A stretch of 64,000 nt of DNA from Cyanobacteriota bacterium (GCA_033764955.1 JANRIL010000020.1:32001-96000); one strand, 5' to 3'; counted from the first letter of the stretch, positions 1,734-59,039 are shown. A program made the numbers and translations. Notes: generated by a model from the letters alone, not told the origin.

Positions 1734-1763
1734 AGGCTTAGCCAGGAAAGAATGGGGGGAAAT

Positions 1764-1848
1764 TTTTAACGGCTAGCATGACGGGCGGCAGACAACATCG
1801 AAACCCAGCTAAAATATTCAATCCGTCCGGTGCAAGCGTTTATTAGGC
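1764..1848 (-). mobile_element. Degenerate integron attC site closing the methyltransferase cassette
   Basis: Minus strand GCCTAAT-aaac-GCTTGCACCGGACGG...CTGCCGCCCGTCATGC-tagcc-GTTAAAA, 85 nt; imperfect arms; shares motifs with attC sites at 45270 and 57268. Confidence 0.65.
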
Positions 1849-1940
1849 ATTCACTATAGGTGATTACGTAAGTTATTTCTATTCTCCAACTAGTTAATTA
1901 GGATGGGTTATGATATCAAGCTATTTTAATACCGAACAGC

Positions 1941-44556: not shown

Positions 44557-44585
44557 GATCTCTACTTAGGTTCTTAAATTTAGCT

Positions 44586-44616
44586 AAAGAGCTTTCCTGC
44601 GGGGAAGCTCTTTTTT
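44586..44616 (+). terminator. Intrinsic terminator
   Basis: AAAGAGCTTTCC...GGGAAGCTCTTTTTT. Confidence 0.8.
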
Positions 44617-44779
44617 GATGTATGTGGTTTGGGGATCCCATCCGCTCTTGATCACGGAAGTTCAGCCTGCCAACAGAAAGGCTTAATCAGCCTGGGATTT
44701 TGTCAATGGATCCCGCCTGCAAATGAGGCAGATCTTGGGGGTGTAGCCTGATTGCCGTGGGTGATTGGGAACGTTAGAC

Positions 44780-44973
44780 CTCCCAATCTGACTGCTGCTC
44801 AATTAGCGAGTTTGTATCGTATTAGCTATCAACTGACTTTTACGATGCTTCAACCTATTCATTTAATTTGTGTTGATGCGCGAACTCAAAATGTGTACGT
44901 CCTCGCTGGATATGACGAAGAGCTTGAGTTTCAAATTCTGCTCAATGGGGAGCCATCTGATGAGCCAGACTAA
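44780..44973 (+). pseudogene. DUF6888-like small protein (start codon apparently degraded)
   Basis: TAAQLASLYRISYQLTFTMLQPIHLICVDARTQNVYVLAG..EFQI..NGE. Confidence 0.6.
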
Positions 44974-45300
44974 TTATTCTGCAATGACTGATGCTGAATT
45001 AAAGCAATATTTTCTTAAACATCGTGGAGATCAAGCTGCTTTTCAACCATATAGTCATTCCAAATAAGAATGCGACCACCTAAATCTTGATATCCAAGCT
45101 TTGAGAGATTTTGGGTTTCTCAAACTAAATTGGAACAACTATATCTAGACAGAATTAATCAACGTCCACACAGGATTATTGCTAGTCCTGATGATCCTGA
45201 TTTTGATGAAAAAGTGCAAGCAGCAATTCGGCAAAAACTAAAAGCAGCAAGAAGCCGCCGCAATCAGCAGGCTAATAATTCAAATGCAGCGGACGGTTGA
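44960..45300 (+). pseudogene. DUF6887-like protein interrupted by a MITE
   Basis: MSQTNYSAMTDAELKQYFLKHRGDQAAFQPY|LDRINQRP...; removing 92 nt restores an 82-aa ORF. Confidence 0.75.
45052..45141. mobile_element. 90-bp MITE with imperfect TIRs and TA duplication
   Basis: TATAGTCATTCCAAATAAG vs reverse complement TATAGTTGTTCCAATTTAG (15/19 including TA); TA at 45050-51 and 45142-43. Confidence 0.75.
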
Positions 45301-45357
45301 GAACTGCTGGTGCTGAGTTCGAGGTCATCTACCGCCGCTGATTTGAGGCGGTTATCA
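45270..45357 (+). mobile_element. Integron attC site (solitary)
   Basis: GGCTAAT..CAAATgCAGCGGaCGG...CCGCCGCTGATTTG..GTTATCA; arms pair with two unpaired bases. Confidence 0.7.
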
Positions 45358-45366
45358 AAAAATGGG

Positions 45367-46875
45367 TTAGAGATCATCTAGGTGGATCCCGTCTGGCCAC
45401 GGGCGATCCCGATAGGGATACCAATAGTTCTTGCGCTCCATGATGTAGTCGATATGCACATGCTTGGGTTCGCGGAAAGCATCTAACCCTTCTTCCCCCA
45501 GTTCTCGCCCATTGCCACTCCAGCGCATTCCTCCAAACGGGGCGGCATCGTTGTCCGTTAAGGGATCATTCACCCAAAAAGTTCCCGCTTTGATGTTCTC
45601 CATCGCTTTCAGAGCATATTCCAAGCTGCGGGTATAGACGGAAGCCCCCAATCCAAACCGAGAATCGTTAGCCATCATAATCGCCTGATCCGCATCTTCG
45701 GCTTCGATGAGAGCAATCACCGGCCCAAAAATTTCTTCGGTGGTGGGCAGGCTACCGTGGCGGACGTTGGTTAACACCGTTGGCTCAAAAAAATGTCCGC
45801 ACCAATCCGGGATCCGTTGACCGCCCCGCAGCAGGGTGGCTCCCTCCTGGCAGGCTTGCCACACCTGTTTTTCCACTTTCTCCACAGCGTCGGCGGAAAT
45901 GAGTGGGCCAATGTCGGTTTCGGGGAGGAGGGGATCCCCCACCTTGAGGGAATGCACATGCTCCAGGAGTCGCTCACAAAACTCCTGAGCAATCGATTTG
46001 ACCAGATAGATGCGCTTAGAAGAGGTACAGACCTGTCCGGCGTTGAGAAGCCGTGCCCAGGCTACCCCCCGCACCGCTACCTCCAGATCCGCATCTTCAA
46101 AGACGATAAATGGATCGACTCCCCCCAGTTCCAGGTTGACCTTTTTCAGGTGTTGTCCGGCTACGGAGGCGATATGGCGACCCACCGCCGTCGATCCGGT
46201 AAAAGCAATCAGATCCACATCGGGGTGTTGAATCAGCGCCTCTCCGGTGGAGCCATCTCCGGTAATCACATTGACGACTCCCGGCGGCAAGATATCGTAG
46301 GCTTTCGCCATCAGGAGATTGGAAAGGGGATTTTGGTGAGGAGGCTTGCAAACTAGCGTATTGCCAGCGGCGAGTGCGGGGGCAACCTTCCAGGCCATCA
46401 GCAGGAGGGGAAAGTTGAAGGGCACGATCGCCGCCACTACCCCATATGGCTCTTTGATGGTGAAATTCAGTTGATGGGGAGCCACGGGAGGAATCGAGTT
46501 GCCCCGGCTGGCGCGTCCCACTTCGGCATAGTATTCAAAGCAAGCCGCCACCCACTCCACACAGTCCAGCGACTCGATCAAGGGCTTACCGGATTCACGG
46601 GTCAAGAGGAGGGCTAACTCATGCTCCATCCCCCGAATGCGGGATCCCACCTCCCGTAACAAGGCGGCTTTCTCTAGCCCCGGCATTTTCCACCAATCCC
46701 GTTGAGCTTGGCGAGCGGCTCGCACCGCCCCATCCACATCTTCAGCAGAACAGTCTGGTACGGTACTGAGGGTTTCTAGGGTAGCGGGATTGTGGATAGA
46801 ACGGCTTTGCTGGCTCTGTGAGGGGATCCACTGCCCATTGATATAAATCAGCTCCACACTCCCTATCCCCCGCAT
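45367..46875 (-). CDS. Aldehyde dehydrogenase
   Basis: PFNFP, FTGST, LELGG, NAGQVC, EEIFGP. Confidence 0.93.
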   Translation of the reverse strand: MRGIGSVELIYINGQWIPSQSQQSRSIHNPATLETLSTVPDCSAEDVDGAVRAARQAQRDWWKMPGLEKAALLREVGSRIRGMEHELALLLTRESGKPLIESLDCVEWVAACFEYYAEVGRASRGNSIPPVAPHQLNFTIKEPYGVVAAIVPFNFPLLLMAWKVAPALAAGNTLVCKPPHQNPLSNLLMAKAYDILPPGVVNVITGDGSTGEALIQHPDVDLIAFTGSTAVGRHIASVAGQHLKKVNLELGGVDPFIVFEDADLEVAVRGVAWARLLNAGQVCTSSKRIYLVKSIAQEFCERLLEHVHSLKVGDPLLPETDIGPLISADAVEKVEKQVWQACQEGATLLRGGQRIPDWCGHFFEPTVLTNVRHGSLPTTEEIFGPVIALIEAEDADQAIMMANDSRFGLGASVYTRSLEYALKAMENIKAGTFWVNDPLTDNDAAPFGGMRWSGNGRELGEEGLDAFREPKHVHIDYIMERKNYWYPYRDRPWPDGIHLDDL

Positions 46876-46914
46876 GTTCTTGGCTCGATTGTAATCTGGA
46901 AAATTCTGAGAGAG

Positions 46915-48111
46915 TTAGCGATTGGCTCGATAGAGGAGGGCTAATCCCACCAGACAGCCAACCGTGTTGGGCAACCAAGCGGCAAGGGCTGGGCCTAAGG
47001 CTCCCGTTTGTCCGAGCGCCTGCATGACAAAGGAAAAAACGTAGTAGCCAAAAATAATCAACACACTGATCCCCAATCCCAGGGAGGAACTGGTACGCTG
47101 AGGCCGCAATCCCAAAGGGGATCCCACCAAAGCAAAGGTCAGGCAGGCAAAGGGGATCGCATATTTCAGATGCAGATGAACCTGCAACCGCCTCACCTGT
47201 TGCAGATCTCCAGAACTGGCCATCACCTGAATATGCCGACTCAGCTCACGGATATTCATCTCTTCAGGACTACGGGCTTCTTGCGCCAGATCGAGGGGGG
47301 CACGGGAGAGGGAGATGTCTTGGCGGGTGAAGGTGGCGATGTTGCTGTAGGTGCCATCCGGGGAGACGATATAGTTGGTGCCATCCAAAAACAGCCACGT
47401 GTTGGTTTCGGGCTGCCATTCTCCGGTGGCGGCTAACAAAATTTGGTTCAGCGATTCATTAGAAAAATCCAGGACAATAATGCCCCGCATAGTGCGTCCG
47501 TCAAAGCTGCGGGCATAAAACTGGCGGGTGAGTCCTTGGCGGCGGGTAACGGCTCCGTTGCTGTCTTGGCCGGTGATGTTGCCAAATTCCTGGTAGAGAA
47601 TGTTTTCCCGCCGAAATTGGGGATCCCGGTCAAGGGCGCGGTTGAGGGTAATCGCCGATTGGCGATTGGCGGAAGGAACCACCCACTCATTCAGGGCAAA
47701 AGTCAGGCTGGTCACCAGCAGGCTGAGGGCAATCGCCGGAACCACCAAACGATAGATGCTCACCCCGCAACTGCGGAGGGCAGTCATTTCACTATCCCCA
47801 GACAGTCGCCCATAGGCTAAGAGAGTGGCCAAAAGCATCGACATGGGAAAGGTCAGCACGATGATCCCCGGTGCTCGCAACGCAAACACCTGCAACGCGG
47901 CGGGGATGGGCAACCCCGATTCCGCTACCAGGCGAACTAACTCAAACAAAGAGCCAATCGCCATGACCAAACCCGTAAAAGCCCCTACCCCAAAGAAAAA
48001 GGGAAGCGCCATTTCCGAGATCAAATAGCGATCCATCATGCCTAGCGAAGTCCAGGCAGAAATCTTGGGGATCTTTGGGGTTGAGGGAAGGGAAGCTTTG
48101 ACAGGGATCAC
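46915..48111 (-). CDS. LptF/LptG family LPS export permease
   Basis: [26 protein letters not shown]; start uncertain. Confidence 0.9.
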
Positions 48112-48842
48112 AGACGAAAATTTTCTCCCAGGTAGTATTTGCGAACCAAGGGATCCGCCGTTAACTCGGTGGAGGATCCTTTAGCAAGAATGGCTCCATC
48201 GTTGAGGATATAGGCTCGATCCGTAATTTCCAGAGTCTCCCGTACATTGTGATCGGTGATCAAGACGCCGATGCCACGGTGTTTGAGTTTAGCCACCACC
48301 TCTTGAATATCGGCGACGGCAATCGGATCCACCCCGGCAAACGGCTCATCTAGCAACAAAAACTGTGGGCCATGAAATCCGGCAGCCAGGGCACGGGCAA
48401 TTTCGGCGCGCCGTCGTTCTCCCCCCGACACCTGTAACCCCAGACTGGCGGCTACATGGGTGATGCGAAATTCTTCCAGTAGCTGGGTGAGGCGCTGTTG
48501 CCAGAGGCGGCGGGGTACGCCGGTTTGCTCCATGATCAGGAGGAGGTTGTCTTGAATGCTGAGACGGCGAAAAATGCTGGGTTCCTGGGCGAGATAGCCG
48601 ATGCCCAGTTGCGCGCGTCGGTGCATCGGCAGGTTGGTGATATCCTGCTGATCGAGCCAAACATGCCCCCGATTGGGTTGCACCAGCCCCGTCATGATGT
48701 AGAAGGTGGTAGTTTTACCGGCTCCGTTGGGACCCAATAAGCCGACGATTTCCCCCTGTTCGATGTGCAGGCTGACATCACTCACCACTTCCCGCCGACC
48801 ATAGCGCTTACAAATATTCTCCAGACGAACTTTCATGGGCAT
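48108..48842 (-). CDS. lptB: LPS export ABC transporter ATPase
   Basis: [37 protein letters not shown]. Confidence 0.95.
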
Positions 48843-49029
48843 CCTCTAGGCTGGCAAGGATAACTGGCTAGGGGTTGGGAGGGTGGTCGGCGTTGCCGTA
48901 TCCACGTGACAGGAAACTCTGTTGATTATGGCGGTGATGAATCCGGGTTGGCTAGGGCATTTTTAGCATAGAACACCGTCGCCTCCCGTCTTAACTTCTG
49001 TTTTTAGGGATTTTTAGGAATTGACTGTC

Positions 49030-49863
49030 ATGGTGGATATTCACTCGCTGTTGAATCAGATCGCCCAGCAGGAACACCACGTCACGGATCAGCCGTTCTT
49101 AGCACCCTGCTTAGCGGGTGGCTCGGTTTGTACCCGCCTCAAGGGGTTGGTCTATACCTTTCGGGTAGAGCCAGCCGATTTTGCTGGTTGGGGGATCCTG
49201 CAAGCCGTGAATGCTCAGGTTGCCCGTTGGGTAGCCGAGCCGACCCTCATGCAAATCAGCGAGTATCTAAAATTGTGGCGACCTTTGCGCCTCTGGTTGG
49301 TGAAACCGTTATCGGGATCCGCTTGGTTGGGCTATCCCGTTAATGCCGGGGATATGCGGCAACGCTGGGGGTGGGTGAAACCGTTACCCGTGCATCTGGT
49401 TGAGGGAGGGGGACAGTTTGAGGGGATTGTGGCGCGCTGGGATGGCAAAACCTGTTGGTTTGCTGAGGCAGATCGGCGGGCGGATCCCCAGATCAGCCAG
49501 CAGTTGCAGGCACACTACCGCCGCTTCACCCCTCCGCAGCAGTTGGCCTTCCCAGGATTAACACCAGAGATGCGAGCCGCCTATCAACTGGCTAGCCAGG
49601 GATCCCAGGGTTTTGTCAAACACCAGCCGCCAGAGGATCGGCTAGCCGCTGCTCTGCGGATGGGGGGAGGGCAGTTGCAACACTACCGCGATCAGGGGGA
49701 CTATTGGCAGGTGAGCTGGTTGACTGCCGATGGAGAACCGCACATGAGCGCTATCGATCCCCAGGATCTGACGGTGATCAGCGCGGGCATTTGCTTGAGT
49801 GGGCGGGATCAAGATTTTGACCTGACATCGCTGGTAGGAGTTATGGAGGGCAAAAATGAATGA
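49030..49863 (+). CDS. Conserved hypothetical protein
   Basis: Clean ORF with FLAPC..GG, GWG and SAGICLSGRDQDFDLTSLVGV motifs; function unknown. Confidence 0.7.
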   Translation: MVDIHSLLNQIAQQEHHVTDQPFLAPCLAGGSVCTRLKGLVYTFRVEPADFAGWGILQAVNAQVARWVAEPTLMQISEYLKLWRPLRLWLVKPLSGSAWLGYPVNAGDMRQRWGWVKPLPVHLVEGGGQFEGIVARWDGKTCWFAEADRRADPQISQQLQAHYRRFTPPQQLAFPGLTPEMRAAYQLASQGSQGFVKHQPPEDRLAAALRMGGGQLQHYRDQGDYWQVSWLTADGEPHMSAIDPQDLTVISAGICLSGRDQDFDLTSLVGVMEGKNE

Positions 49864-49899
49864 AATGGGTCTTAATGACGGTTGAGAACACGGATCAAC

Positions 49900-51036
49900 A
49901 TGCTCTATCGCCGCTTTGGTCAAACCAATATCCATATCTCGGTTTTTTCGCTGGGGCTGATGCGGCTGGTGTATGAAAGTCGAGCAGTGGCTCACCAAAC
50001 CCTGAAAGTGGCTTTAGCCGCAGGCATCAATCACTTAGAAACCGCTCCATCCTACGGAAATAGTGAAGTTCAATTGGCAGAACTGTTGCCGGAAGTATGT
50101 GCCGAATTGGGATTACAGCGCCCACAATTGGTCATCACCAGTAAACTCTTGCCAACCGGATCCGCGGCAGCGGTGCAGGATCGTTTACAGGGATCCCTAA
50201 CCCGCCTCAGGCTCAATTATTTGGATCTGTTGGCGTGGCATGGCATCAATTTGCCCGAGCATTTGGAGTGGGTGTTAGAGGTGGGGTTACCCGCCGTGCA
50301 GCCATTCATTGAGCAGGGAAAAATTCGCTTTGTCGGATTTTCTAGCCATGCTCCCTTAAGCCTACTGTTAGAAACTGTGCAGACGGGGGCTTTTGCTTTT
50401 GTCAATTTGCACTATTACTATTTTCATCAGCGGAATCAGCCCGTTTTAGCAGCAGCCCAACACCAAGATATGGGCGTGTTTATTATTTCTCCAGCGGACA
50501 AAGGAGGGATGCTTTATCGACCGCCCCTGCTCCTCCAGCAACTGTGTCACCCCTTCAGCCCCTTAGAATTTGGCTATCGGTTTCTCCTGGCGGATCCACG
50601 CATTCATACCCTCAGTGTCGGGCTGGCTCACCCCCAAGAAATTACCCCCGCCTTGACCGCTTTAGAATCTAGCCAGGACTGGCAACACTGGGGATCCCTG
50701 ATTGAGCAGCGTTTAGCGGATCAGATGCACCGTCGCCTCGGACCTGATCGTTGTGCCCAGTGCTACGCCTGCCTGCCCTGTCCGCAGGGGATCCCGATTC
50801 CCGAAGTTCTCCGCCTCCGCAACGGCGCAGTGGCTCTGGATATGACCGATTATGCCCAATATCGTTACAACATGTTGGGGCAAGCCGGCCATTGGTTCCC
50901 TGGGGAAAAAGCGGATAGCTGCCAAACCTGTGGAGACTGTCTGCCCCGTTGCCCTGAGCAATTGCGGATCCCGGATCTGCTGGCGGATGCCCATCAACGG
51001 CTGCAACAATCTCCGATTCGCCGCCTCTGGGAATAA
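49900..51036 (+). CDS. Aldo/keto reductase with C-terminal Fe-S domain
   Basis: INHLETAPSYG, VGFSSH, CAQCYACLPCP, CQTCGDCLPRCP. Confidence 0.9.
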   Translation: MLYRRFGQTNIHISVFSLGLMRLVYESRAVAHQTLKVALAAGINHLETAPSYGNSEVQLAELLPEVCAELGLQRPQLVITSKLLPTGSAAAVQDRLQGSLTRLRLNYLDLLAWHGINLPEHLEWVLEVGLPAVQPFIEQGKIRFVGFSSHAPLSLLLETVQTGAFAFVNLHYYYFHQRNQPVLAAAQHQDMGVFIISPADKGGMLYRPPLLLQQLCHPFSPLEFGYRFLLADPRIHTLSVGLAHPQEITPALTALESSQDWQHWGSLIEQRLADQMHRRLGPDRCAQCYACLPCPQGIPIPEVLRLRNGAVALDMTDYAQYRYNMLGQAGHWFPGEKADSCQTCGDCLPRCPEQLRIPDLLADAHQRLQQSPIRRLWE

Positions 51037-51116
51037 CACCATTCACCCGCTAACCATAGCAAGCCGCAGCGAAAGGTGTAGAGTAAGAGATTAAGAGAGT
51101 GCAAGCAACCGTCGTC

Positions 51117-52376
51117 ATGGCTTGGTCGCGTCGTCATTTTTTGAGCAGTAGTGCGGCTTTGGCGCTTGGTTCTTGTGCGGCTCGCCGTACGGCTCCTGCT
51201 GTGGCTTCCTCCATCCGTTTTTGGACGATGCAGCTCAAGCCTACCTTTGATGCCTATATGCAGGAGCGGCTGACCGCCTTCGCCGGCATGGCGGAAGGTG
51301 TTCCTGTCGAGTGGGTGGATGTTCCTTGGGGGGACATGGAAAACAAGATTCTCACGGCGGTAGCAGCCAACACAGGGCCGGATGTCGTGAATCTCAATCC
51401 CCAATTTGCCTCCCGCCTCGCCGAAAAAAACGCCCTCGTCGATCTGGCTCCCCTACTTAGCCCCTCCCAGCAAGCCGTTTATTTCCCTAACCTCTGGCGA
51501 GCCAACCAATTGGGATCCGTCACCTTTGGCTTGCCTTGGTATGTCGCCACCGATATCACCCTTTACAACCGCGACCTGCTCCGTCAAGCGGACTGGGATC
51601 CCGATCAGCCCCCCCAAACCTACAGCCAGCTAGCCAGTGCCGCCATTCAGATCCGGCAAAAGACCGGCAAGCCTGGTTTTATGTTGACAATGGATGGCAG
51701 CCAGATGTTAGAGGCGATGGTGCTGATGGATATGGCCCTGCTGGATGAGGAGGGTCAAGCCGCCTTTGACGATGCCATCGGGCGAGAAGCTTTTGCCTAT
51801 TGGGTGGATCTGTTGCAGGCGGGCGGGATCCCACGGGAAACCCTGACGGAAAGCCACCGCCGTGCTATCGAGCTTTATCAGGCGGGAGAACTGGCCATGC
51901 TCTTGACGGGACCGCAGTTGCTCACGCAGATCGTGGAGAATGCCCCTCAGATCGCTCAGGTTTCTGATGTTGCCCCCCAAATCGCCGGCAGCCAGGGACG
52001 GAAAAGCGCCAGTGTCATGAATCTAGTGATTCCCCAAAAATCCCAAAATATCCCCGCCGCCCTTCAGTTTGCCCTGTTTCTCACCAACAGTCCCAATCAA
52101 TTGGCCTTTGCTCAGATCGCCAATACCCTCCCTTCCACCATCGCCACCGTCTCGGATCCCTATTTCACCCAGTCCACCTCCGACAGTCTGCTGGAGAAAG
52201 CCCGCCTTCTCAGTGCCGCTCAACTCAGTCAATCGGAAGTGCTGATCCCGCCCATGCAGGGTCTCGATGATCTCCGCAAAATTATCTATGAAGAACTGCA
52301 ACTGGCGATGCTGCAACAAAAAACAGTTGATCAAGCCGTTACCGATGCCGCCACTCGTTGGAACCAACGCCTCTAA
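51117..52376 (+). CDS. Sugar ABC transporter substrate-binding lipoprotein
   Basis: Tat-like SRRHFL, LGSC lipobox, WVDVPW, PDVVNLNP. Confidence 0.85.
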   Translation: MAWSRRHFLSSSAALALGSCAARRTAPAVASSIRFWTMQLKPTFDAYMQERLTAFAGMAEGVPVEWVDVPWGDMENKILTAVAANTGPDVVNLNPQFASRLAEKNALVDLAPLLSPSQQAVYFPNLWRANQLGSVTFGLPWYVATDITLYNRDLLRQADWDPDQPPQTYSQLASAAIQIRQKTGKPGFMLTMDGSQMLEAMVLMDMALLDEEGQAAFDDAIGREAFAYWVDLLQAGGIPRETLTESHRRAIELYQAGELAMLLTGPQLLTQIVENAPQIAQVSDVAPQIAGSQGRKSASVMNLVIPQKSQNIPAALQFALFLTNSPNQLAFAQIANTLPSTIATVSDPYFTQSTSDSLLEKARLLSAAQLSQSEVLIPPMQGLDDLRKIIYEELQLAMLQQKTVDQAVTDAATRWNQRL

Positions 52377-52521
52377 CCGAGAGTGTTCTCAAAAAATCTT
52401 GGAACCAACCGTTGAAAAAATAGTCTTAAAAAAGTAGTCAAAGAAACCGTTTTCCGAAGTTTTTTCGACTCAACAGATGAGTGTTTAATACTTAACCATC
52501 CCCAAACAGCGGAGAGCCACA

Positions 52522-53529
52522 GTGAGGAAGATGCTCATGACGTTGTCAAAATCAGTCATCGCCTGTCTCCTTTTGGGACTATTGACAACCGCCTGTCAAC
52601 CCCAATCCTCTGATAACTCCCAGAGCACCCCTTCCGAAACCACCCCCCCTGCTTCCTCCCCCACCCCCCAACCCTCTCTTGATCCGGCAGGGGATCCCTC
52701 ACTCCCCCCTTCCCCCCAGGTTGAGGCAAGCCCTGAACTAACCACTGAACCAATAGCAATGGGGGATAGCAGTCAAACCTCCCTCGATTGGGCAGGAGTC
52801 TATCAAGGGGTTGTGCCCTGTGCCAGTTGCTCCGGCATTGAAACTACCCTCACCCTCAATCCCGATCGTTCCTACCGCCTGACCCTCCGCTATCTGGGTG
52901 AGTCGGATGAGGAGATAGAAAGGAGCGGAACGTTTAGCTGGAATGAGCAAGGCAATACCATCACCCTCAGCAATAGTGACAATGCCCCTAGCCAATATCT
53001 CGTGGGAGAAAATCAGTTGATTCAACTGGATCAGCAAGGGGAACGGATTACGGGGGGGCTAGCCGACCAATACATCCTCAGCAAAATGGATAGTTCCAGT
53101 GAGAGTTCCAGTGACAGCTCCAGTCGCTTATCCCAGGCTAGTCCGTTGGGTGAGGAGCCATCCACAACTTCTAAAAATCCTCTGTTTGATACCCGCTGGC
53201 AACTGATTGAGCTAAGAGGGGAACCGATAGAAGTTCGTTCCGATGCCCAAGCGGTACCATTTCTTCTCTTCAACACTAAGGACAATGCCTTACAAGGCTC
53301 TGGCGGCTGTAACCAATTGCGAGGATCCTATCAACGGCAAGCGGGCAACCGTCTGAGTTTCTCGCAGGTGGCTACCACCCAAAAAGCCTGTGCCGATATG
53401 GCTCTGGAATCTGCTTTTTTGGAGGTATTGGGGATGGTGGACAACTACACCCTCAGCAATGACCAGCTCAGTTTGCATAAAGCTAAAATGGCTCCTCTCA
53501 TGCGTCTTCAGGCGGTAGAAGCTCCGTAA
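52522..53529 (+). CDS. NlpE-N plus META domain lipoprotein
   Basis: LTTAC lipobox, LDWAGVYQGVVPCASCSGI, GSGGCN, TQKAC. Confidence 0.85.
   Translation: MRKMLMTLSKSVIACLLLGLLTTACQPQSSDNSQSTPSETTPPASSPTPQPSLDPAGDPSLPPSPQVEASPELTTEPIAMGDSSQTSLDWAGVYQGVVPCASCSGIETTLTLNPDRSYRLTLRYLGESDEEIERSGTFSWNEQGNTITLSNSDNAPSQYLVGENQLIQLDQQGERITGGLADQYILSKMDSSSESSSDSSSRLSQASPLGEEPSTTSKNPLFDTRWQLIELRGEPIEVRSDAQAVPFLLFNTKDNALQGSGGCNQLRGSYQRQAGNRLSFSQVATTQKACADMALESAFLEVLGMVDNYTLSNDQLSLHKAKMAPLMRLQAVEAP
53477..53529 (+). repeat. Left copy of diverged 53-bp direct repeat (3' end of META gene)
   Basis: 43/53 identical to 57929-57981 by manual alignment. Confidence 0.85.
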
Positions 53530-53599
53530 ACCGCCCTTATTCACGACCTATCCACAACATTCTCAGGGATCCAAGAGGCCGAAGATGCCTGATTACGCC

Positions 53600-54413
53600 A
53601 CCCTGCCGTTTTCCGCCGCATGGGTTTGGCTGTCGGACAATCTCTCTGAGCGAGCGCCAGGTGACTGAGCGAGGACTGACGGTGGAGAGCCTCAAGTTGG
53701 GGTGGGGGATGGTGTTTGTTACCAAGACCCAGGCTCCGGCAAGGAGACGCTGATCCGCTTGGAGGCTGAGCGGGGATTTGAAGGGATCCCTGGGGCTAGT
53801 AGGTCGCAGCAACGCTCGGAGATGATGCGCCAGATTTTGCGGCGATTGGATCTGGTGAATGCCGCTTGGGTGCGGCAGGAGATGGCAGCGATTGATCAGG
53901 GAATTAAGGAGCGGCGTTCACCTCCAAGCTGGGTGCAAAGTGCGATGGGACAGGCAGAGACCCTGGATCAGGTGGAGACCGAAGATCCGCAATAAGGTAG
54001 ATCGAGAGCGGGCTTACGTGGTGGATGCCGATGGCACGGTAGTCCTGACTAAAGACGGTGAGGCCTTGTCGGTGGACTTCACCTACGAGGAGATGCAATT
54101 GATTCGGGGCAAGGTGTTTACCCACAATCATCCCAAAGGGGGATCCTTTTCTCGTGAAGATATCAACTTTTTGCTAACCGTCTACCCATCAGAGATGAGA
54201 GCAGTGAGTCGAGATTACCGATACTCAATGAAACTGCCCGATAATCCTATCGACGCATTCTTCGAGATCAGAAAGATATTTGACCGGGTTAAAGAGTCTG
54301 TGCGACTGGAACTGGTAGAGCGAGTCAGGTCTGGCGAATCAACCCTTATTGCAGCCGAGCAGCAGTTTATGCACTTGTTAGCTGGCTTAGTTACGGGTGG
54401 TGATTGTAGTTGA
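53600..54413 (+). pseudogene. Phage MuF head-morphogenesis protein remnant with C-terminal JAB/MPN-like domain, frameshifted and cut by cassette insertion
   Basis: FPPHGFGCR.ISLSERQV.ERGL (53610 frame), GFEGIPG, then HNHPKGGSFSREDI. Confidence 0.65.
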
Positions 54414-54518
54414 AAGGTTACTGGTTGGGATTCGATGCTCTAGCCAACCTTCAAGACAGCGGCTATTCAGAAAATAAGGCGCTATACTGACAGATATTTG
54501 ACCATCGAAGATAAAACT

Positions 54519-56168
54519 ATGTTGAGAATTCAAGATTTAAACCTTGGTTTTAATGATGCTGAAAACTATAAAAGAAGTGAGAATAAGAGCCTTTTAAATA
54601 AAGTGTTTTTTAGGACAGACGAGCTTGATAGGCTTTGCGAGAGAAGCACGTTTTTCCTGATTGGTGAGAAAGGAACTGGAAAAACTGCTTGTGCTGTCTA
54701 CTTATCGAATAACGATTACAAAGATACACTATCATCAATTAATTATATTAGAGAGACGGACTATCAAAAGTTTGTTCAGATGAAGAAGAGAGAGCATCTT
54801 GCTCTTTCTGATTATGTAGATATTTGGAAAGTAATTCTATATCTACTGATCAGCAAAAACGTTAGTGAAAATGAGCCAAATAGTTTACTATTACCTAAAG
54901 CTATTAAGTTTCGCAATATTAATTCGGCTGTAGATGAGTATTATGCAAGAGCATTTTCTCCAGAAATCATAAATGCAATTAAGTTTGTAGAGAAATCCAA
55001 AATAGCTGCTGAACTTGTATCAAAATATGCCAAAGCTAGCGGAGAAGAAAGCGAAGAAATAGCGTTTTCTGAAAGCCTTTTTCAAATCAATCTCATGTAT
55101 GTCCAGAAGAAATTTGAAGAAGCATTCTCATCTCTAAAACTACAGAAGAATCATCTGCTGTTCATAGATGGAATTGATATTAGACCATCACGAATTGATT
55201 ATGAAGACTATCTTGAATGCGTTAAAGGCTTAGCAAACGCAGTATGGGCAATCAATAACGATGTATTTCCCAAAATAAAAGATTCAAAAGGACGGCTTAA
55301 AGTTGTGCTTCTAGTAAGACCTGATATTTTTGATTCCATAGGTTTGCAAAATCGGAATAATAAGATTAGAGATAACTCTGTTCTATTAAATTGGAATACA
55401 ACTTATAAAAATTACAGAAACTCCAAGTTGTTTGAAATGGCTGGAAAGTTGGTGGGGACTCAGCAAAATCCGCAAGTTCAGTATGATAAGGCTTGGGATT
55501 ACTATTTTCCCTACACAATCGAAAATAAAGCTAATAACAAGCAAAGCGAAAATGATCCATCATTTATTGGTTTCTTGAGATATTCTCTTTATCGCCCTAG
55601 AGATATTGTCACAATGCTCTCTATTCTTAAAGAAAATTTTATTGAGCAGAGACAAGATCCTAATAGAGTATTTTCTGAAGCGGATTTCTTTAACGCTGAG
55701 TTTGTCAGAAAGTATTCGGAATATCTGTTAGGTGAAATAAAGGATCAGTTGTCTTTTTACTACACGGAAAATGATTATCAACTTTTCCTTAAATTCTTCG
55801 AGTACTTGAAAGGAAAGAGCCAGTTTTCGTATGATGATTATCTCAGTGCTTATCAAGCGTTTGTAGGATATCTAGATTCAAATTCAATTAGAAGACCAAA
55901 ATTTTCTGAAGCGCCTGACGTATTTCTTCAATTTCTCTATGAGTTGAACGTCATTTTTTATATTGAGAAAGTATCGGGCGGAAACTTCATAAGACTATGC
56001 CTTCGAGAGCGAAACCCAACTAACATTTCTCCAAAAGTTAAAACACATCAAACATATCAAATTCACTACGGACTAATCGAAGAGCTTAACGTAGGTAAGA
56101 AATACACTACGCTTGAAGTAGCGTTTCGGCAGGCTTTCAATAGACCTCAGAAAATTGAGAATCAATAA
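54519..56168 (+). CDS. Sll1717/FunZ-type P-loop ATPase (cassette 1)
   Basis: LNLGFNDAE, GEKGTGKT, LFIDGID, RPDIF, RPRDI; very AT-rich; alternative TTG start 54498. Confidence 0.75.
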   Translation: MLRIQDLNLGFNDAENYKRSENKSLLNKVFFRTDELDRLCERSTFFLIGEKGTGKTACAVYLSNNDYKDTLSSINYIRETDYQKFVQMKKREHLALSDYVDIWKVILYLLISKNVSENEPNSLLLPKAIKFRNINSAVDEYYARAFSPEIINAIKFVEKSKIAAELVSKYAKASGEESEEIAFSESLFQINLMYVQKKFEEAFSSLKLQKNHLLFIDGIDIRPSRIDYEDYLECVKGLANAVWAINNDVFPKIKDSKGRLKVVLLVRPDIFDSIGLQNRNNKIRDNSVLLNWNTTYKNYRNSKLFEMAGKLVGTQQNPQVQYDKAWDYYFPYTIENKANNKQSENDPSFIGFLRYSLYRPRDIVTMLSILKENFIEQRQDPNRVFSEADFFNAEFVRKYSEYLLGEIKDQLSFYYTENDYQLFLKFFEYLKGKSQFSYDDYLSAYQAFVGYLDSNSIRRPKFSEAPDVFLQFLYELNVIFYIEKVSGGNFIRLCLRERNPTNISPKVKTHQTYQIHYGLIEELNVGKKYTTLEVAFRQAFNRPQKIENQ

Positions 56169-56202
56169 TTGGAGTGAAGTTGAAATCTACTGAGTTTTCG
56201 CC

Positions 56203-56289
56203 AGCTAACAACCCGGTTGGAGCGGACGTGCATAGTTCTTTTGTCTATCGTTCTAGTTTTCTGGTTGCCGCTCAACCGGAACGTTGAGC
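56203..56289 (+). mobile_element. attC site 1
   Basis: AGCTAAC..CCGGTTGgAGCGG...CCGCTCAACCGG..GTTGAGC, 87 nt. Confidence 0.88.
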
Positions 56290-56342
56290 CTAGGACGGTC
56301 GTGCTGAGACACTGAAGTGGATCATTCAACGGGAGGTATTTT

Positions 56343-56711
56343 ATGTCCGTATTTCGCAAAGATCAGAACGAGGTACACAGCCTTCACGGCAACCACATCG
56401 TCGGTGTTGCCACGCCTACCAGCGGCGCAAAGCAAGTTGAGATGTGGCACGGTCGCATGGATGCAAACTCCGCTACCCCACCGCACAGCCACGACACCGA
56501 AGAAGTTGTCCTGTTCCTGAAAGGCAGTGGTCGAGCCACGGTTGCCGACGCGGAAGTTCGCTACCACGCAGGGGACACACTGATCCTGCCGGCTGGCCAT
56601 GTGCACCAAATCTTCGCCGACACCGACAGTGAGTTCGTTTCAGCCAGTCCAAGCGGTGGCACGGTCAAACTTCCAGATGGTGTGGTTCTGGATCTTCCAT
56701 GGCGCAAGTAG
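56343..56711 (+). CDS. Cupin domain protein (cassette 2)
   Basis: PHSHDTEEVV, GDTLILPAGHVH; GGAGG RBS; GC-rich. Confidence 0.88.
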   Translation: MSVFRKDQNEVHSLHGNHIVGVATPTSGAKQVEMWHGRMDANSATPPHSHDTEEVVLFLKGSGRATVADAEVRYHAGDTLILPAGHVHQIFADTDSEFVSASPSGGTVKLPDGVVLDLPWRK

Positions 56712-56716
56712 CTTCG

Positions 56717-56785
56717 GCCCAACAACAGGTTCCAGTGCGACGTCCTCGCCTTCGGCGAGGACGCGCCTGAACCTGGGCGTTATAC
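56717..56785 (+). mobile_element. attC site 2
   Basis: GCCCAAC..CAGGTTcCAGtGCG-a-CGTCCTCGCC-TTC-GGCGAGGACG-CGCCTGAACCTG..GTTATAC, 69 nt. Confidence 0.92.
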
Positions 56786-56845
56786 GGCACAATAAATGAT
56801 GGTTTATGCAGATGAAGAATAGTCTATGTCGGTAAAAGAAGAAGT

Positions 56846-57253
56846 ATGTCGATAGAGGAAGAAGCCAAAGCGGTAGTGCGTCACTACGTCGAAGCATTTA
56901 ACCAAGGTGATTTAGATACACTGAAGGCACTGCTCACTGAGGATGCTGAGATTCAGGGTGTAATGGGCAAAGGTCTTATTGAGAAGATTGAGCCTATTTG
57001 GCGACAACTCATCGAGGGCTACGGTATGCAACTTAAGATCGAGGAGTTAATCGCGGAAGGCAATATCGTGGCAGCAAGGTATGTTGAGACAGGAGTTTTC
57101 AGATCACCAGCGTTTGGGAATCAGCCAACGGGAAAATCTTACGAGCTTGTTGCAATGGAATGGTTTGAAATAGAAGGGGGTAAAGTTAAACGCCGTTGGG
57201 GCGCTAGGGATGCTGCATCGCAGGCACGGCAACTAGGCATTCCTCTGCTTTAG
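56846..57253 (+). CDS. SnoaL-like ester cyclase / NTF2-fold protein (cassette 3)
   Basis: VVRHYVEAFNQGD, IEELIAEGNIVAAR, PTGKS, GKVKRRWG. Confidence 0.88.
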   Translation: MSIEEEAKAVVRHYVEAFNQGDLDTLKALLTEDAEIQGVMGKGLIEKIEPIWRQLIEGYGMQLKIEELIAEGNIVAARYVETGVFRSPAFGNQPTGKSYELVAMEWFEIEGGKVKRRWGARDAASQARQLGIPLL

Positions 57254-57267
57254 CCTGAATACATGCC

Positions 57268-57356
57268 GTATAACATAATTCGCTTGGAGTGGACGGAACA
57301 GAGGTTATCTGTGGGTGTTCAAGGTTATCTACCGCCGCAAGACTTCACCGTTGGGC
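57268..57356 (+). mobile_element. attC site 3 (degenerate arms)
   Basis: GTATAAC..GCTTGGAGTGGACGG...GTTCAAGGTTATCTACCGCCGCAAG..GTTGGGC. Confidence 0.75.
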
Positions 57357-57463
57357 TGCTCAGTTCATATACTCAGTTCGTATAAGTTCATATAATGGAG
57401 AGGTAGTTCATTGGCTCTCTCCCAATACTTAGGGAATATCTGATATGAACAATATTCAGATGA

Positions 57464-57913
57464 ATGGTCAAGCTCATCACCACTGTCACTGACACTGACC
57501 TCTGGCAACTCTTTGCTCGGATCGATACAACTTTACGTAACCCTCAGCCCCTCTACCAAGCCTGAGCCAATCACCTCAAATCCCGCGTCGTCGCCGCCTT
57601 CAAACAAGAAACCTCACCCGCTGATCAAGCATGGCCGGAACTTAAGAGCGCCACCATCCATCGCAAAAGCCGGAACTCCCGCAGTATCAACAAGAAGCTT
57701 CGAGATACAAGAACTCTCTATGACTCAATAGCTGCTCGTGCGATGCCCGATGGCGCGGCAATCGGCACCAATCAGCGAGTGGGATCCTACAGTCTGGGGG
57801 CAATCCACCAATACGGCGCGCCCCGCCAACGGATCCGGCTGCGTCCGTTTTTGCCTGTGGACGCAAATGGCAACCTTCTGGAGAAAGACATTTTAAAGAG
57901 GCGGTTGGTTTGA
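57464..57913 (+). pseudogene. Phage virion morphogenesis protein (Mu gpG-like) with internal TGA at 57563
   Basis: Manual translation: F.QETSP.DQAW.EL..AT, LRDT.TLYDSI, IGTN, AIHQYG, RPFLP. Confidence 0.8.
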
Positions 57914-57928
57914 CTCAAGACTGGCTGA

Positions 57929-57981
57929 ATAAAGCGAAGATAGCTCCTCTCATGTCTTTTGAAGTGGTAGAAGCTCCCTAA
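57929..57981 (+). repeat. Right copy of diverged 53-bp direct repeat
   Basis: Encodes KAKIAPLMSFEVVEAP* vs KAKMAPLMRLQAVEAP* in the left copy. Confidence 0.85.
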
Positions 57982-58077
57982 TTGGCTCTTATCACCTATC
58001 CATCCTCAAAACATCCTCAAACAATTGCAAATCCTTCTAAGCTAGGGGAGGATTGGTCAAGAAAGGGATCCCGGATC

Positions 58078-58713
58078 ATGGTGAGGGTGTTGCTGCCTTT
58101 GGTGGATGGCTTTGAAGAGATTGAAGCGGTGACGGTGATCGATATTCTGCGGCGGGCTGAGATAGAGGTGGTGGTGGCAGCACTAGGGGAGATCTGGGTA
58201 ACGGGCAGTCATGGCATAGTGCTCAAAGCGGATACAGGGTTGGGGGATCTCCTGAATGCATGTGGGGGATCCCTGGCGGCGGACTGTCAACAGCTAGCTA
58301 AGCAGTTTGATGGATTGGTGTTGCCGGGTGGCCCTGGCACAGCCACCTTGCAAGCAGACGGGCAGGTTGGGGAATTGGTGCGGGCTTTTGCTGACCAGAA
58401 TCGCTGGCTAGCCGCCATCTGCGCGGCTCCCATGGTCTTGGCTCAACAGGGGATCCTCCAGCAAAAAGCCGCCACTAGCTACTTCAGCCGCGAGGTTTAT
58501 CAGCAAGCCAGGGCAGGGCAGATCACCTTGAATGTGGTGACAGGACCTATTGCCGACTATCAACTGGATCCCGTCGTGGTGGATGGCAACGTGATCACCA
58601 GCCGAGGGGCAGGTACGGCGGTAGCCTTTGCGCTGGCATTGGTGCAGGCATGGTTAGGCGAATCACGGGCGCTAGCAATTGCTCAATCCATTCACGCCCC
58701 TTGGCCGATCTAG
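58078..58713 (+). CDS. DJ-1/PfpI (YajL-like) family protein
   Basis: GFEEIEAVTVIDILRRA, LPGG, AICAAP, ITSRGAGT. Confidence 0.92.
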   Translation: MVRVLLPLVDGFEEIEAVTVIDILRRAEIEVVVAALGEIWVTGSHGIVLKADTGLGDLLNACGGSLAADCQQLAKQFDGLVLPGGPGTATLQADGQVGELVRAFADQNRWLAAICAAPMVLAQQGILQQKAATSYFSREVYQQARAGQITLNVVTGPIADYQLDPVVVDGNVITSRGAGTAVAFALALVQAWLGESRALAIAQSIHAPWPI

Positions 58714-59039
58714 GATGGATCGATGGCTTGCGGCGAATCGATAGGGGGTGAAGCAGTGGAGGAGGATCCCTGTTGATCCACCGCTTGCTTAAAGCCAAAC
58801 GCCACTAACAGATTGGAAACGGTTAAAAAGGCTTCCGCCCCCCCGTGCAAGACATCTACGTTAGCGAGAGAGGTGCCCAGGCGGAGTTGAGCATAAATTC
58901 CGGCGGGAATTGTCACAGCCACAAACACCAACAAGACATAAAAGCCGATCAGTGCCAAGCGAGGGGTGTTGGGGGTCTTGCTCAAAAACCACAAGAAAGC
59001 CAAATAGGGGAATAGAGATAGGGCAAACAAATTGCTCAT
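58710..59039 (-). CDS. DUF3593 membrane protein
   Basis: LFALSLFPYLAFL, LANVDVLHGGAE. Confidence 0.85.
   Translation of the reverse strand: MSNLFALSLFPYLAFLWFLSKTPNTPRLALIGFYVLLVFVAVTIPAGIYAQLRLGTSLANVDVLHGGAEAFLTVSNLLVAFGFKQAVDQQGSSSTASPPIDSPQAIDPS

Follow-up and report, generated by a model that had tools for sequence, protein, structure and literature searches.

The DNA analysed, hereafter the window, is a stretch of 64,000 nucleotides from a member of the Cyanobacteriota (GCA_033764955.1, JANRIL010000020.1:32001-96000), and positions are counted from its first letter. PsaA/B and phycobilisome genes served as cyanobacterial markers, psbA not having been found. Between 54378 and 57350 on the plus strand, the window contains three integron gene cassettes and the stump of a fourth, which can with high confidence be described as a CALIN. 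The array sits within a decayed phage-derived gene pair, termed the host unit below, and the following features are distinguished:

53613..53916, plus strand: left module of the host unit, conserved, covering the N-terminal portion of a polymorphic-toxin-like ORF
53859..54413, plus strand: host ORF of 184 aa, the last 12 codons and stop codon of which derive from cassette 1
54375..54377, plus strand: left junction, CACTTG|TT, with the crossover base G at 54377
54378..56283, plus strand: cassette 1, 1906 bp, both boundaries set by homology breakpoints
56201..56291, plus strand: attC1, with R'' AGCTAAC at 56203-56209 and R' GTTGAGC at 56283-56289
56284..56779, plus strand: cassette 2, 496 bp, start matching R'' at 7/8 positions
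56715..56787, plus strand: attC2, with R'' GCCCAAC at 56717-56723 and R' GTTATAC at 56779-56785
56780..57350, plus strand: cassette 3, 571 bp, boundaries matching at 11/11 positions
57266..57358, plus strand: attC3, with R'' GTATAAC at 57267-57273 and R' GTTGGGC at 57350-57356
57351..57366, plus strand: fourth-cassette stump, a leader-type start that breaks off after ~16 nt
57359..57394, plus strand: tandem repeat of three 13-nt units (CTCAGTTCATATA), located where the fourth cassette breaks off
57464..57913, plus strand: host unit, right module: a pseudogenised Mu gpG-like gene (Phage_tail_S)

Each cassette comprises a single ORF followed by an attC site, which begins 5-35 nt past the stop codon, and all three ORFs were found to be intact by ORF calling. 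The preliminary description of this DNA had recognised three cassettes ending at 57356; the number of complete cassettes stands, but the right edge must be shifted, as the three are followed by the ~16 further bases of the truncated fourth. Cassette 1 carries a conserved 5' leader and an ORF (54498/54519-56168) whose product belongs to the Sll1717-family P-loop ATPases (NF047389; 208.6 bits, cutoff 75), the match spanning positions 1-453 of the 454 in the model. Searches of four proteins with PADLOC gave nothing usable, the best match of the ATPase being Cas8a (E 0.004, 13.7 bits), which was disregarded, and no defence-system role is therefore claimed for it. The ORF of cassette 2 (56343-56711) encodes a cupin (PF07883 Cupin_2, E 3.5e-12), for which the sole DNA homologue found, in genome G298 (73%), is confined to the coding sequence, has no attC and is not evidently cassette-borne. 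Cassette 3 encodes a SnoaL-like protein (56846-57253; PF07366 SnoaL, E 1.8e-16), with no homologues past the attC core found among 400 genomes. The sharp differences in cargo GC content reported earlier are evident (~0.32-0.35, 0.57-0.60 and 0.46 for cassettes 1, 2 and 3, respectively), with values of ~0.33, ~0.58 and ~0.46 in the cassettes as against 0.48-0.54 in the contigs of this genome. Derivation from different donors, as proposed on that occasion, is plausible, and is borne out for cassette 1 only, which is common to other cyanobacterial families.

The attC sites were evaluated using a covariance model (R1) seeded by nine sites, none of them in the window (five from an intI-adjacent array on contig C9, two from an array on C38, and one each from C11 and C12). 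The seed sites were picked by a crude AAC...GTT stem scan, which gave many false positives. The R1 hairpin has 91% of cells paired, compared with 23-52% in slid controls, and compensatory changes in 9/15 pairs of the L stem provide covariation support for it. Searching the whole window with filters off yielded 16 matches at E<=10, including the three array sites (51.9, 18.3 and 27.1 bits), all on the plus strand, which is the strand of the cassette ORFs. The lack of any attC model match had been named in advance as evidence against an array; the genome-specific R1 instead finds 3/3 sites in the right orientation. According to the available text of PMC4889954, a CALIN has a minimum of two attC sites on the same strand inside 4 kb and lacks a neighbouring intI, and this search of the window places three sites on the plus strand within 4 kb. 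The reported absence of intI from the window is correct, and a TIGR02249 search of the whole genome showed that it extends to all 168,620 bp of the array contig, C42.

The three sites differ in quality. The first, attC1, matches R1 with 51.9 bits (E 7e-11) on the plus strand and 22.2 bits on the minus strand, and belongs by this model to the family of intI-adjacent sites; its bottom strand folds at -15.4 kcal/mol (z -1.87; 12/200 shuffles equally good). A short type, as previously noted, is represented by attC2, which is GC-rich and 73 nt in length compared to 91-93 nt for the others. Its 18.3 bits correspond to an E of only 0.045, R1 being a family-specific model, and the fold of its bottom strand has a free energy of -25.4 kcal/mol (z -6.33; 0/200 shuffles equally good), with bulges read off the fold as G, A and T, separated by 2 and 3 bp. 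The match of attC3 (27.1 bits, E 2e-4) includes several non-standard pairs. Its bottom strand reaches -6.5 kcal/mol (z +1.16; 176/200 shuffles equally good), the minimum-energy fold of this strand contains no hairpin, and its 67-nt core recurs in 20/400 other genomes of the phylum at 80-91% identity. It is thus a family member by sequence, with the boxes present and a broken L stem, and such a degenerate site is probably impaired, as judged from the modelled fold. The statement that the arms pair with extrahelical bases accordingly holds for attC1 and attC2, and fails for attC3. According to the consulted part of PMC5027507, the R and L boxes of a functional attC must be accompanied by a spacer that remains unpaired, by additional bases in the L'' arm and by 6 bp of stem from the first to the last bulge. 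All of these are present in attC1 and in the family alignment, in which the bulges lie on the L'' arm at the 6-bp spacing demanded there. The first bottom-strand bulge of the cyanobacterial family is a C, whereas a G is usual.

The cassette boundaries bear the imprint of recombination. The start of cassette 1 (GTTAGCTGGC, 54377-54386) and its end (GCCAGCTAAC, 56200-56209) are reverse complements at 10/10 positions, exactly as first described, and a repeat search places the two strings within a longer inverted repeat of 12 nt without mismatches (54375-54386 / 56200-56211). For cassette 3, GTTATACGGCA (56779-56789) complements TGCCGTATAAC at the 11/11 positions previously given, the latter string beginning at 57263 and not at 57264, while the complementary ends of cassette 2, GTTGAGCC (56283-56290) and GGCCCAAC (56716-56723), agree at 7/8 positions instead of 6/7. 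Beyond the obligatory GTT/AAC, 7 and 8 more bases match exactly in the two perfect pairs (~4^-7 and ~4^-8 by chance), and the boundary complementarity exceeds chance. When the 7 nt distal to R'' are compared with the start of their own cassette, 7/7, 5/7 and 7/7 positions agree for cassettes 1 (counted by eye), 2 and 3 (both from a direct control), compared with just 0/7, 2/7 and 3/7 against R' of the same attC. The same holds genome-wide, with means of 5.4/7 against the own cassette start and 2.8/7 against the same-site R' (26 pairs of successive sites from 12 clusters; three sites without locatable boxes were dropped). R'' hence complements the first bases of its own cassette and not the R' of its own attC, which is the signature of crossover.

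Copies of cassette 1 occur in four other cyanobacterial MAGs, with 82-94% protein identity and ~87% DNA identity. Homology to locus L024 starts exactly at 54377 (blastn), and the corresponding base in L024 falls in the R' of an attC (R1 34.8 bits), while homology to L025 stops exactly at 56283, L025 retaining the attC (R1 34.9 bits). Locus L033 presents a third context, with homology from 54374 onwards, and the DNA upstream of the cassette is unrelated among the window, L024 and L033. A short metagenome contig furthermore diverges just past the GTT at 56283-56285, which is weak evidence given its low depth in one run. By sequence comparison, cassette 1 forms a separate mobile unit that occurs in other contexts in other cyanobacteria, with both breaks at G|TT. 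Homologues that are never cassette-borne had been put forward as a second ground for doubt; the copies of cassette 1 adjoin attC sites in both L024 and L025.

In the available text of PMC4889954, about half of CALINs lie on replicons encoding IntI. Here intI is absent from the window, as stated, yet the genome encodes two intact copies, on contigs C9 and C38 (TIGR02249 scores of 463 and 451 bits, the cutoff being 265). Both are full length, contain no stops and are 88% identical to each other (309/352), and each belongs to a complete chromosomal integron, with an attI that is conserved between them and a divergent array whose attC sites are of the family seen in the window. TIGR02249 matches are distributed over C9, C38, C36, C4, C30 and C27, several of these being intI fragments. 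The genome (3.8 Mb) contains ~45 other attC loci. Solitary attC sites number ~33 and small clusters about twelve, some of the clusters standing at contig ends. The intI-adjacent arrays are short (~5-8 sites found), and most attC sites are dispersed, occupying 24 contigs or more. The class was sampled in 150 further genomes, of which 105 (~70%) possess the attC family; it extends across many taxonomic families, and it also occurs in 61/102 sampled genomes that lack a full intI. The attC model, the genome's own intI, attI and arrays, the R''/own-start signature and the breakpoints of cassette 1 all agree with the integron-cassette interpretation advanced in the preliminary description.

The left module of the host unit is 78-82% identical to C34:48801-49093 and C11:40116-40409 (blastn), making it a three-copy unit. 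The toxin-like ORF is frameshifted here, and the tail_S pseudogene has an in-frame TGA (57563-57565) where both paralogues, which match PF05069 (E 1.6e-16 and 3.6e-16), have TGG. The C-terminal part of the host ORF (~54003-54377) has no match in Pfam, NCBIfam or PADLOC, and a search of 5.8 billion proteins for homologues of 101-322 aa matched only the ORF itself, which leaves no basis for recovering the 3' end that it once had. The paralogous units on C34 and C11 were considered as internal empty sites and rejected, the middles being unrelated in all three copies. A search of 30 relatives for a syntenic empty site, with 6.25 kb of DNA as query, found none and matched only a DJ-1 gene and attC cores. 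A 4.4-kb segment is flanked by imperfect direct repeats of ~95 nt, corresponding to the 3' end of an NlpE/META gene.

The DNA left of 54377 is coding sequence belonging to the host unit's variable domain, and is neither attC nor attI. A copy of attI was rejected for this junction, visual comparison with two attI sites showing ~7 identical bases in 14. A degenerate attC was likewise rejected: TGCAGCCGAG resembles the L'' consensus by eye at 8/10 positions, and R1 gave no match at E<=10 at 54200-54400. The junction, G|TT, fits the GWT motif given for genomic insertion in the available text of bioRxiv 10.1101/2022.09.11.507474, so that on this side a 5'-GWT-3' junction lies in DNA of non-integron origin, as for attG. 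On the right side, the G|TT of attC3 is followed by the start of a cassette and not by target DNA, which speaks against a simple one-step attG insertion and means that an origin by the attG route would require a later deletion. The stump, GTTGGGCTGCTCAGTTC, agrees at 16/17 positions with the start of the cassette that follows C11:36521-36612(-), and the C11 cassette that shares this start ends in the matching GCAGCCCAAC. A metagenome contig runs on from the point of the stump with leader-type sequence.

An origin by insertion along the attG route, with leftward stacking and a later deletion, is a proposition for which belief and doubt are evenly balanced. The bottom strand of an attC is able to form an imperfect hairpin, which integron integrases recombine at the G|TT of the R' box. 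By the attG route, IntI would have inserted the first cassette at a G|TT that was neither attC nor attI, at the 3' end of the phage-derived toxin-like ORF, and later cassettes would have joined at the same junction, the newest being leftmost. A deletion not due to IntI would afterwards have removed most of the oldest (fourth) cassette together with the original right junction.

That the structure is no integron at all, the hairpins being terminators or REP-/MITE-like palindromic repeats and the end complementarity a product of chance, is extremely improbable. The sites do lie directly past stop codons, as terminators also do, repeats of this family abound in the class, and Rfam, which seems to hold no attC family, returned no match for 44000-59000 at E<=1. 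However, a terminator scan found no terminators at the attC sites, which lack T-tracts, and the family adjoins both intI genes in the canonical divergent layout. R1 and intI matches also lie within a few kb of each other on contigs of several other genomes (for example G109:C25, G530:C8, G517:C5, G030:C5, G321:C47 and G524:C23), and the preference of R'' for its own cassette start, the spacing of the L''-arm bulges and the breaks of homology exactly at G|TT likewise argue for attC sites.

It is possible, though rather unlikely, that the array is a piece of a former intI-linked array, brought here by rearrangement or imported by horizontal transfer with the phage-derived island, so that IntI made neither end at this site. 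Rearrangement is among the routes to CALINs listed in the available text of Cury et al. 2016 (PMC4889954), and the intI fragments and many dispersed clusters imply that arrays have been broken up in this genome. The right end is a truncated cassette and not a crossover, and the NlpE/META direct repeats around the 4.4 kb are as expected of an imported island. Against this stands the left end, which is base-exact at the crossover of cassette 1 as seen in two other genomes, where a random break would rarely fall; moreover, the DNA to its left is host-unit variable domain and not integron DNA, and the 168-kb contig has no intI remnant. Somewhat easier to credit, if still on the doubtful side, is a decaying relic, genuine in origin, now neither mobile nor expressed, lying in pseudogenised DNA and with a terminal attC that has ceased to be usable. 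The degenerate attC3, the truncated fourth cassette, the in-frame stop in tail_S and the frameshift in the toxin-like ORF are in keeping with decay, as are a promoter signal not above chance and the lack of a left partner attC for the excision of cassette 1. The three intact cassette ORFs, the well-formed attC1 and attC2 and the two apparently intact IntI genes speak against a relic, and the ~87% DNA identity of cassette 1 to its copies elsewhere argues against long neutral decay.

The integrases encoded on C9 and C38 could work on the array in trans, and cassette 2 could be excised via attC1 x attC2 and then re-inserted at attI; cassette 3 would be less likely to be mobile owing to the degeneracy of attC3. 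As there is no Pc, any expression would be expected to depend on co-oriented read-through from upstream or on cassette-internal promoters; promoter-like matches in a scan showed no excess (6, compared with 6.7 +/- 2.8 in shuffles). A search for an excision product or presence-absence variant found no joints in one sequencing run (0.05 word share; seven short contigs of relatives).

As an element the array is unremarkable and of a type already known, and cyanobacterial integrons and CALINs have already been published. In the literature found, cyanobacterial integrons receive only passing mentions. It is of the same kind as the CALINs in the available text of PMC4889954, which it resembles in its small cassettes of non-resistance or unknown function and in the complete integron elsewhere in the genome. 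It differs in being nested in a decayed phage-derived pair, with a left end that is a crossover with non-integron DNA and a right end that is a truncated cassette. The attG/SALIN work of Loot et al. (bioRxiv 10.1101/2022.09.11.507474) is, in its available text, experimental and concerned with E. coli and IntI1, IntI2 and IntI3. The locus agrees with it in the joining of a cassette to ordinary DNA of the chromosome through a G|TT conforming to 5'-GWT-3', and the genome in its ~33 lone attC sites and small clusters, the pattern there ascribed to genomic insertion. In contrast, the insertion is here only inferred and the right junction is missing, and several cassettes are stacked at a single site, a situation that the available text of that work does not mention. 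As in the Vibrio cholerae VCR integrons (PMC5027507, available text), attC sites are similar within the genome, the family tracks intI across relatives, and the attC anatomy is canonical in its boxes, spacer, L'' bulges and 6-bp stem. In place of the one large array of sedentary VCR integrons, there are short intI-adjacent arrays and scattered sites, and where the VCR family is lineage-wide, the cyanobacterial attC family spans many families of the class.

Taken alone, the array is one more CALIN, and its value is that of a clean natural specimen. With its base-exact boundaries, its end formed by crossover with non-integron DNA and its known cognate integrases and attI, it therefore provides a convenient test case for whether the chromosomal IntI of non-Proteobacteria insert cassettes at attG-like sites and keep adding to them. 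A side result may be weightier than the array itself: a single attC family occurs very commonly, together with its integrase, in the class as sampled. A further reading, rather unlikely as it stands, is that a natural attG event at an ordinary G|TT in a phage-derived toxin gene created a cassette-recruiting point, at which at least four cassettes stacked without an attI. If such a recruiting point is real, and taken together with the ~45 loci and the class-wide family, cyanobacterial integrons would be largely dispersed, genome-wide systems and not single-platform ones, and would draw on a cassette pool shared across the class and marked by an attC family with C, not G, as the first bulge.

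The segment at 54378-57350 is very probably an array of integron cassettes belonging to the attC family of the genome itself, as argued by its anatomy, cassette ends and attC sites. The latter were scored with R1, an attC covariance model built in this analysis without sequence from the window; contig prefixes denote other contigs of the source genome.

Features of the cassette array
54498/54519-56168, forward strand: cassette 1 ORF, Sll1717-family P-loop ATPase (208.6 bits with NF047389, cutoff 75)
56201-56291, forward strand: attC1 (R1, 51.9 bits, E 7e-11)
56343-56711, forward strand: cassette 2 ORF, cupin
56715-56787, forward strand: attC2 (R1, 18.3 bits, E 0.045)
56846-57253, forward strand: cassette 3 ORF, SnoaL-like protein
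57266-57358, forward strand: attC3 (R1, 27.1 bits, E 2e-4)

An imperfect palindrome starting with ..AAC and ending with GTT.. lies 5-35 nt downstream of each ORF, and the GC contents of cassettes 1, 2 and 3 are about 0.33, 0.58 and 0.46, respectively, against 0.48-0.54 for the contigs. The boundary strings quoted in the preliminary description are all present in the window. Those of cassette 1, given there as GTTAGCTGGC at 54377 and GCCAGCTAAC at 56200, lie within an inverted repeat that is perfect over 12 nt (54375-54386/56200-56211), while GTTATACGGCA (56779) and TGCCGTATAAC of cassette 3 match at 11/11 positions as described, with the second placed at 57263, one base from the position reported earlier. 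The cassette 2 ends, GTTGAGCC at 56283 and GGCCCAAC at 56716, match at 7/8 positions. Strand exchange in integron recombination takes place at G|TT in R', so that the bases beyond GTT belong to the next cassette and R'' is complementary to the start of its own cassette. For the three window cassettes, the 7 nt on the distal side of R'' agree with the start of their own cassette at 7, 5 and 7 of 7 positions, versus 0, 2 and 3 of 7 for R' of the same site. For the genome as a whole, taking 26 pairs of consecutive sites from 12 clusters and leaving out three sites with boxes that the script did not locate, the corresponding means are 5.4/7 and 2.8/7, and the own-start signature also occurs in the first cassettes adjoining both attI sites.

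The R1 model was seeded with nine attC sites from the source genome, all outside the window: the C9 array supplied five and the C38 array two, and C11 and C12 contributed a single site each. In its hairpin 91 % of cells are paired, versus 23-52 % after shifting the partners by 1-3 columns; both sides change in 9/15 pairs of the L stem, and the covariation score was reached by 0/500 shuffles. The hairpin proposed for this attC family is supported by covariation. An unfiltered R1 search of the entire window gave sixteen matches at E<=10. On its reverse strand attC1 reaches just 22.2 bits, and the orientation of this site thus agrees with that of the ORFs. Single-strand folding of the bottom strands gave the expected bulged hairpin for attC1 (-15.4 kcal/mol; z -1.87) and attC2 (-25.4 kcal/mol; z -6.33). 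The earlier statement that the attC arms pair with extrahelical bases therefore holds for these two sites, but not for attC3, which did not form the expected hairpin (-6.5 kcal/mol; z +1.16) and has lost the L' bases needed for pairing with L''. The first L'' bulge is a top-strand G, giving a bottom-strand C, in eight of the nine seed sites, as also found in attC1, and a top-strand T in the ninth. In attC sites as described by Nivina et al. (PMC5027507), the first bulged bottom-strand base is "usually a G". Relative to the sites described there, the R1 family is canonical in its second bulge (bottom T) and 6-bp spacing, but carries a C instead of a G at the first bulge. The attC2 site is of another attC type and has the usual G.

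Scanning one genome per species gave twelve loci that encode relatives of the cassette 1 ATPase. The closest four (82-94 % protein identity) are in metagenome-assembled genomes whose records are titled Thermosynechococcaceae cyanobacterium, Nostoc, Phormidesmis and 'uncultured bacterium', while the remainder (50-61 %) occur in Bacteroidota and Pirellulales. Three of the twelve loci carry an R1 attC, located 38 nt 3' of the ATPase gene at L025, just 5' of it at L024 and, as a weaker match, 3' of it at L026. In blastn comparisons, homology between the window and L024 starts exactly at 54377, this G being that of R' of the L024 upstream attC, and the DNA upstream is unrelated. With L025, homology spans attC1 and stops precisely at the R' G, position 56283, while a further locus, L033, provides a third, likewise unrelated, upstream context. 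Through these breaks in homology, independent genomes thus place cassette 1 at 54378-56283 with base-exact ends. On these sequence comparisons, cassette 1 is a mobile unit that different cyanobacteria share. Homologues borne on cassettes, on which the preliminary description had let its reading hinge, thus exist for cassette 1 in other genomes. Among 400 genomes of the phylum, the sole DNA homologue of cassette 2 (G298; 73 %) covers the CDS alone and has no attC, and cassette 3 has no homologue besides the attC core. This core occurs at 78-86 % identity in 10/30 relatives and at 80-91 % in 20/400 other genomes of the phylum. Separately, a far larger segment on C12 is bounded by the strings found at the ends of cassette 3: an attC with 78 % identity to attC1 (C12:19394-19484) is followed by GTTATACGGCAC (C12:19476), equal to the cassette 3 start, with its TGCCGTATAAC partner about 5 kb further on (C12:24445).

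To the left of 54377, no attC (R1, E<=10) and no attI-like sequence, by comparison with the attI sites of the genome, was found. The left junction cuts a 184-aa ORF (53859-54413) 12 codons before its end, and cassette 1 provides the stop codon. The right end of the array had been placed at 57356, wrongly, as a cassette start, GTTGGGCTGCTCAGTTC, continues at 57350-57366 after the G|TT of attC3. It shares 16/17 positions with the start of a C11 cassette which terminates in a matching GCAGCCCAAC, and a metagenome contig matching R' of attC3 runs on into the leader where the window diverges (weak evidence from one low-depth run), so a fourth cassette has been truncated after about 16 nt. Exactly at this break, three tandem 13-nt units, CTCAGTTCATATA (57359-57394), are found, the unit containing the final bases of the cassette leader. 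This loose leader of ~50 nt (GTTRnnCnnC-TtAGTtctcGGTGGGGcAG...CTGTT), to which the start of the fourth cassette belongs, was recognised by eye, without statistics, in some 9-12 of the 62 cassettes, among them cassette 1 (54377-54410) and those at C11:36521(-), C9:5771(+) and C27:112987(-), and the cassette 1 copy at L024 carries it too.

The array sits inside one of three genomic copies of a phage-derived host unit of ~1.5 kb.

Modules and copies of the host unit
53613-53916: left module, 78-82 % identity to the C34 and C11 copies
57460-57930: right module, 78-82 % identity to the C34 and C11 copies
C34:48801-50221: paralogous host unit
C11:40116-41547: paralogous host unit

In the C34 and C11 copies the modules are about 700 bp apart, and the middles are unrelated among all copies. 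The right module corresponds to a Phage_tail_S gene (Mu gpG-like; PF05069 matches in both paralogues), and is broken in the window by a TGA versus TGG in the paralogues. A toxin-like ORF makes up the left part. Its N-terminal stretch is conserved and its C-terminal domain varies, being a PBECR1 nuclease on C34 and weakly GNAT-like on C11; in the window the ORF is frameshifted and this domain has no family assignment. Each copy is wedged among housekeeping genes and has no recombinase of its own. An imperfect direct repeat (53474-53540/57926-57992; about 75-78 % identity, ~95 nt aligned), comprising the last ~45 nt of an NlpE/META gene and downstream DNA, flanks the whole 4.4-kb window segment, much as an integrated island would be flanked. 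No such repeats were found at the C34 and C11 copies.

The left end of the array is an exact crossover joined to non-integron DNA at G|TT, and thus fits insertion by IntI at a genomic site. In Loot et al. (bioRxiv 10.1101/2022.09.11.507474), where IntI-catalysed insertion of this kind is described as the attG route and given a GWT motif, small CALINs (cassette clusters without a nearby intI) and lone attC sites are proposed to originate from it. We infer, with about an even chance of being right, that the array arose by insertion at a genomic G|TT, stacking and later deletion. Cassettes would have been inserted repeatedly at this junction, the newest being leftmost, and a deletion would then have taken most of the oldest cassette along with the original right junction. 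This is the simplest such history because the DNA beyond attC3 is a cassette start and not target DNA. Arrival of the array piece through rearrangement, or along with an island, is a possible but less probable origin: the truncated right end and the ~95-nt repeats around the 4.4-kb segment favour it, but it leaves the base-exact left end unexplained.

Judged by sequence, the two IntI of the genome could excise cassette 2 in trans via attC1 x attC2, while mobility of cassette 3 would require the damaged attC3, and a left attC is missing from cassette 1. The array has no Pc promoter, and its promoter-like matches show no excess over chance.

The source assembly (48 contigs; 3.8 Mb; 89 % complete) is cyanobacterial, encoding PsaA/PsaB and 11 phycobilisome-family matches; psbA, searched as a further cyanobacterial marker, was not found in the genome. 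A whole-genome TIGR02249 search bore out the earlier observation that the window has no intI, and extended it to the entire 168-kb contig, C42, of which the window covers 32001-96000.

Integron integrase genes of the source genome
C9:19-960, reverse strand: full-length intI (TIGR02249, 463 bits against a cutoff of 265)
C38:63588-64529, forward strand: full-length intI (TIGR02249, 451 bits against a cutoff of 265)
C36:180-860, C4:4-123, C30:655-831 and C38:182627-182934: intI fragments or pseudogenes, with stops or at contig ends

The two full-length proteins share 88 % identity (309/352) and retain the C-terminal catalytic region, and after each gene come a conserved attI-like region (...TTTCCGTATAnTAnnTA|GTTAG) and a run of attC-like sites in divergent orientation. 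Given the fragments beside two intact genes, either the genome once held more integrons or some have been split by assembly gaps.

Further attC sites are found in the window.

Other attC sites in the window
45268-45359, forward strand: lone attC (top R1 score of the window, 73.3 bits)
1762-1850, reverse strand: attC (R1, 35.5 bits)

The first stands after a small DUF6888 ORF (44752-44973), and with a candidate cassette start, GTTCAGCCTGC, near 44660, directly after an OprB porin gene, the segment 44660-45359 looks like a single-cassette insertion (SALIN). The second lies directly 3' of a C-5 DNA methyltransferase gene split over two frames (2297-3229 and 1941-2315, reverse strand), and no cassette start matching this attC was found. 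With 150/595 candidates scored, and with other attC types such as attC2 missed by the model, R1 has at least 77 genomic matches at E<=1 and at least 60 at E<=1e-3, on 24 contigs. Under the 4-kb rule of IntegronFinder, the sites among these scored candidates group into two intI-linked arrays (8 and 5 sites), 12 more clusters of 2-4 and 33 lone sites. The same sequence (GTTATCGAATTGATrAyAGAC...) follows four attC sites (C27:18913, C11:33780(-), C4:15565 and C27:112538(-)), which suggests a recurrent cassette or a conserved array-terminating element.

Among 150 other sampled genomes of the class, which include kin that are not independent and for each of which 28 candidates were scored, R1 matches at E<=1e-6 were found in 105. 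An above-cutoff intI occurs in 48/150, with R1 matches in 44 of these, and matches are also found in 61 of the 102 genomes with no such intI, some having about 20. The attC family is thus not peculiar to the source genome, and the sequence matches point to an integron lineage widespread in the class. Integrons have been reported in Cyanobacteria since 2007-2008 (PMC2426708), and a 2016 paper (PMC4889954) described CALINs as a class, along with how they may originate and the fact that they co-occur with complete integrons; in the parts of the integron literature considered here, Cyanobacteria receive passing mention only. As both are in print, the array belongs to an already known kind. The observation of the preliminary description is confirmed and its integron reading supported, with corrections. 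The array is an ordinary element for this bacterial class and of modest interest, which lies mainly in a base-exact natural junction with non-integron DNA and, as a side result, in the class-wide integron lineage.
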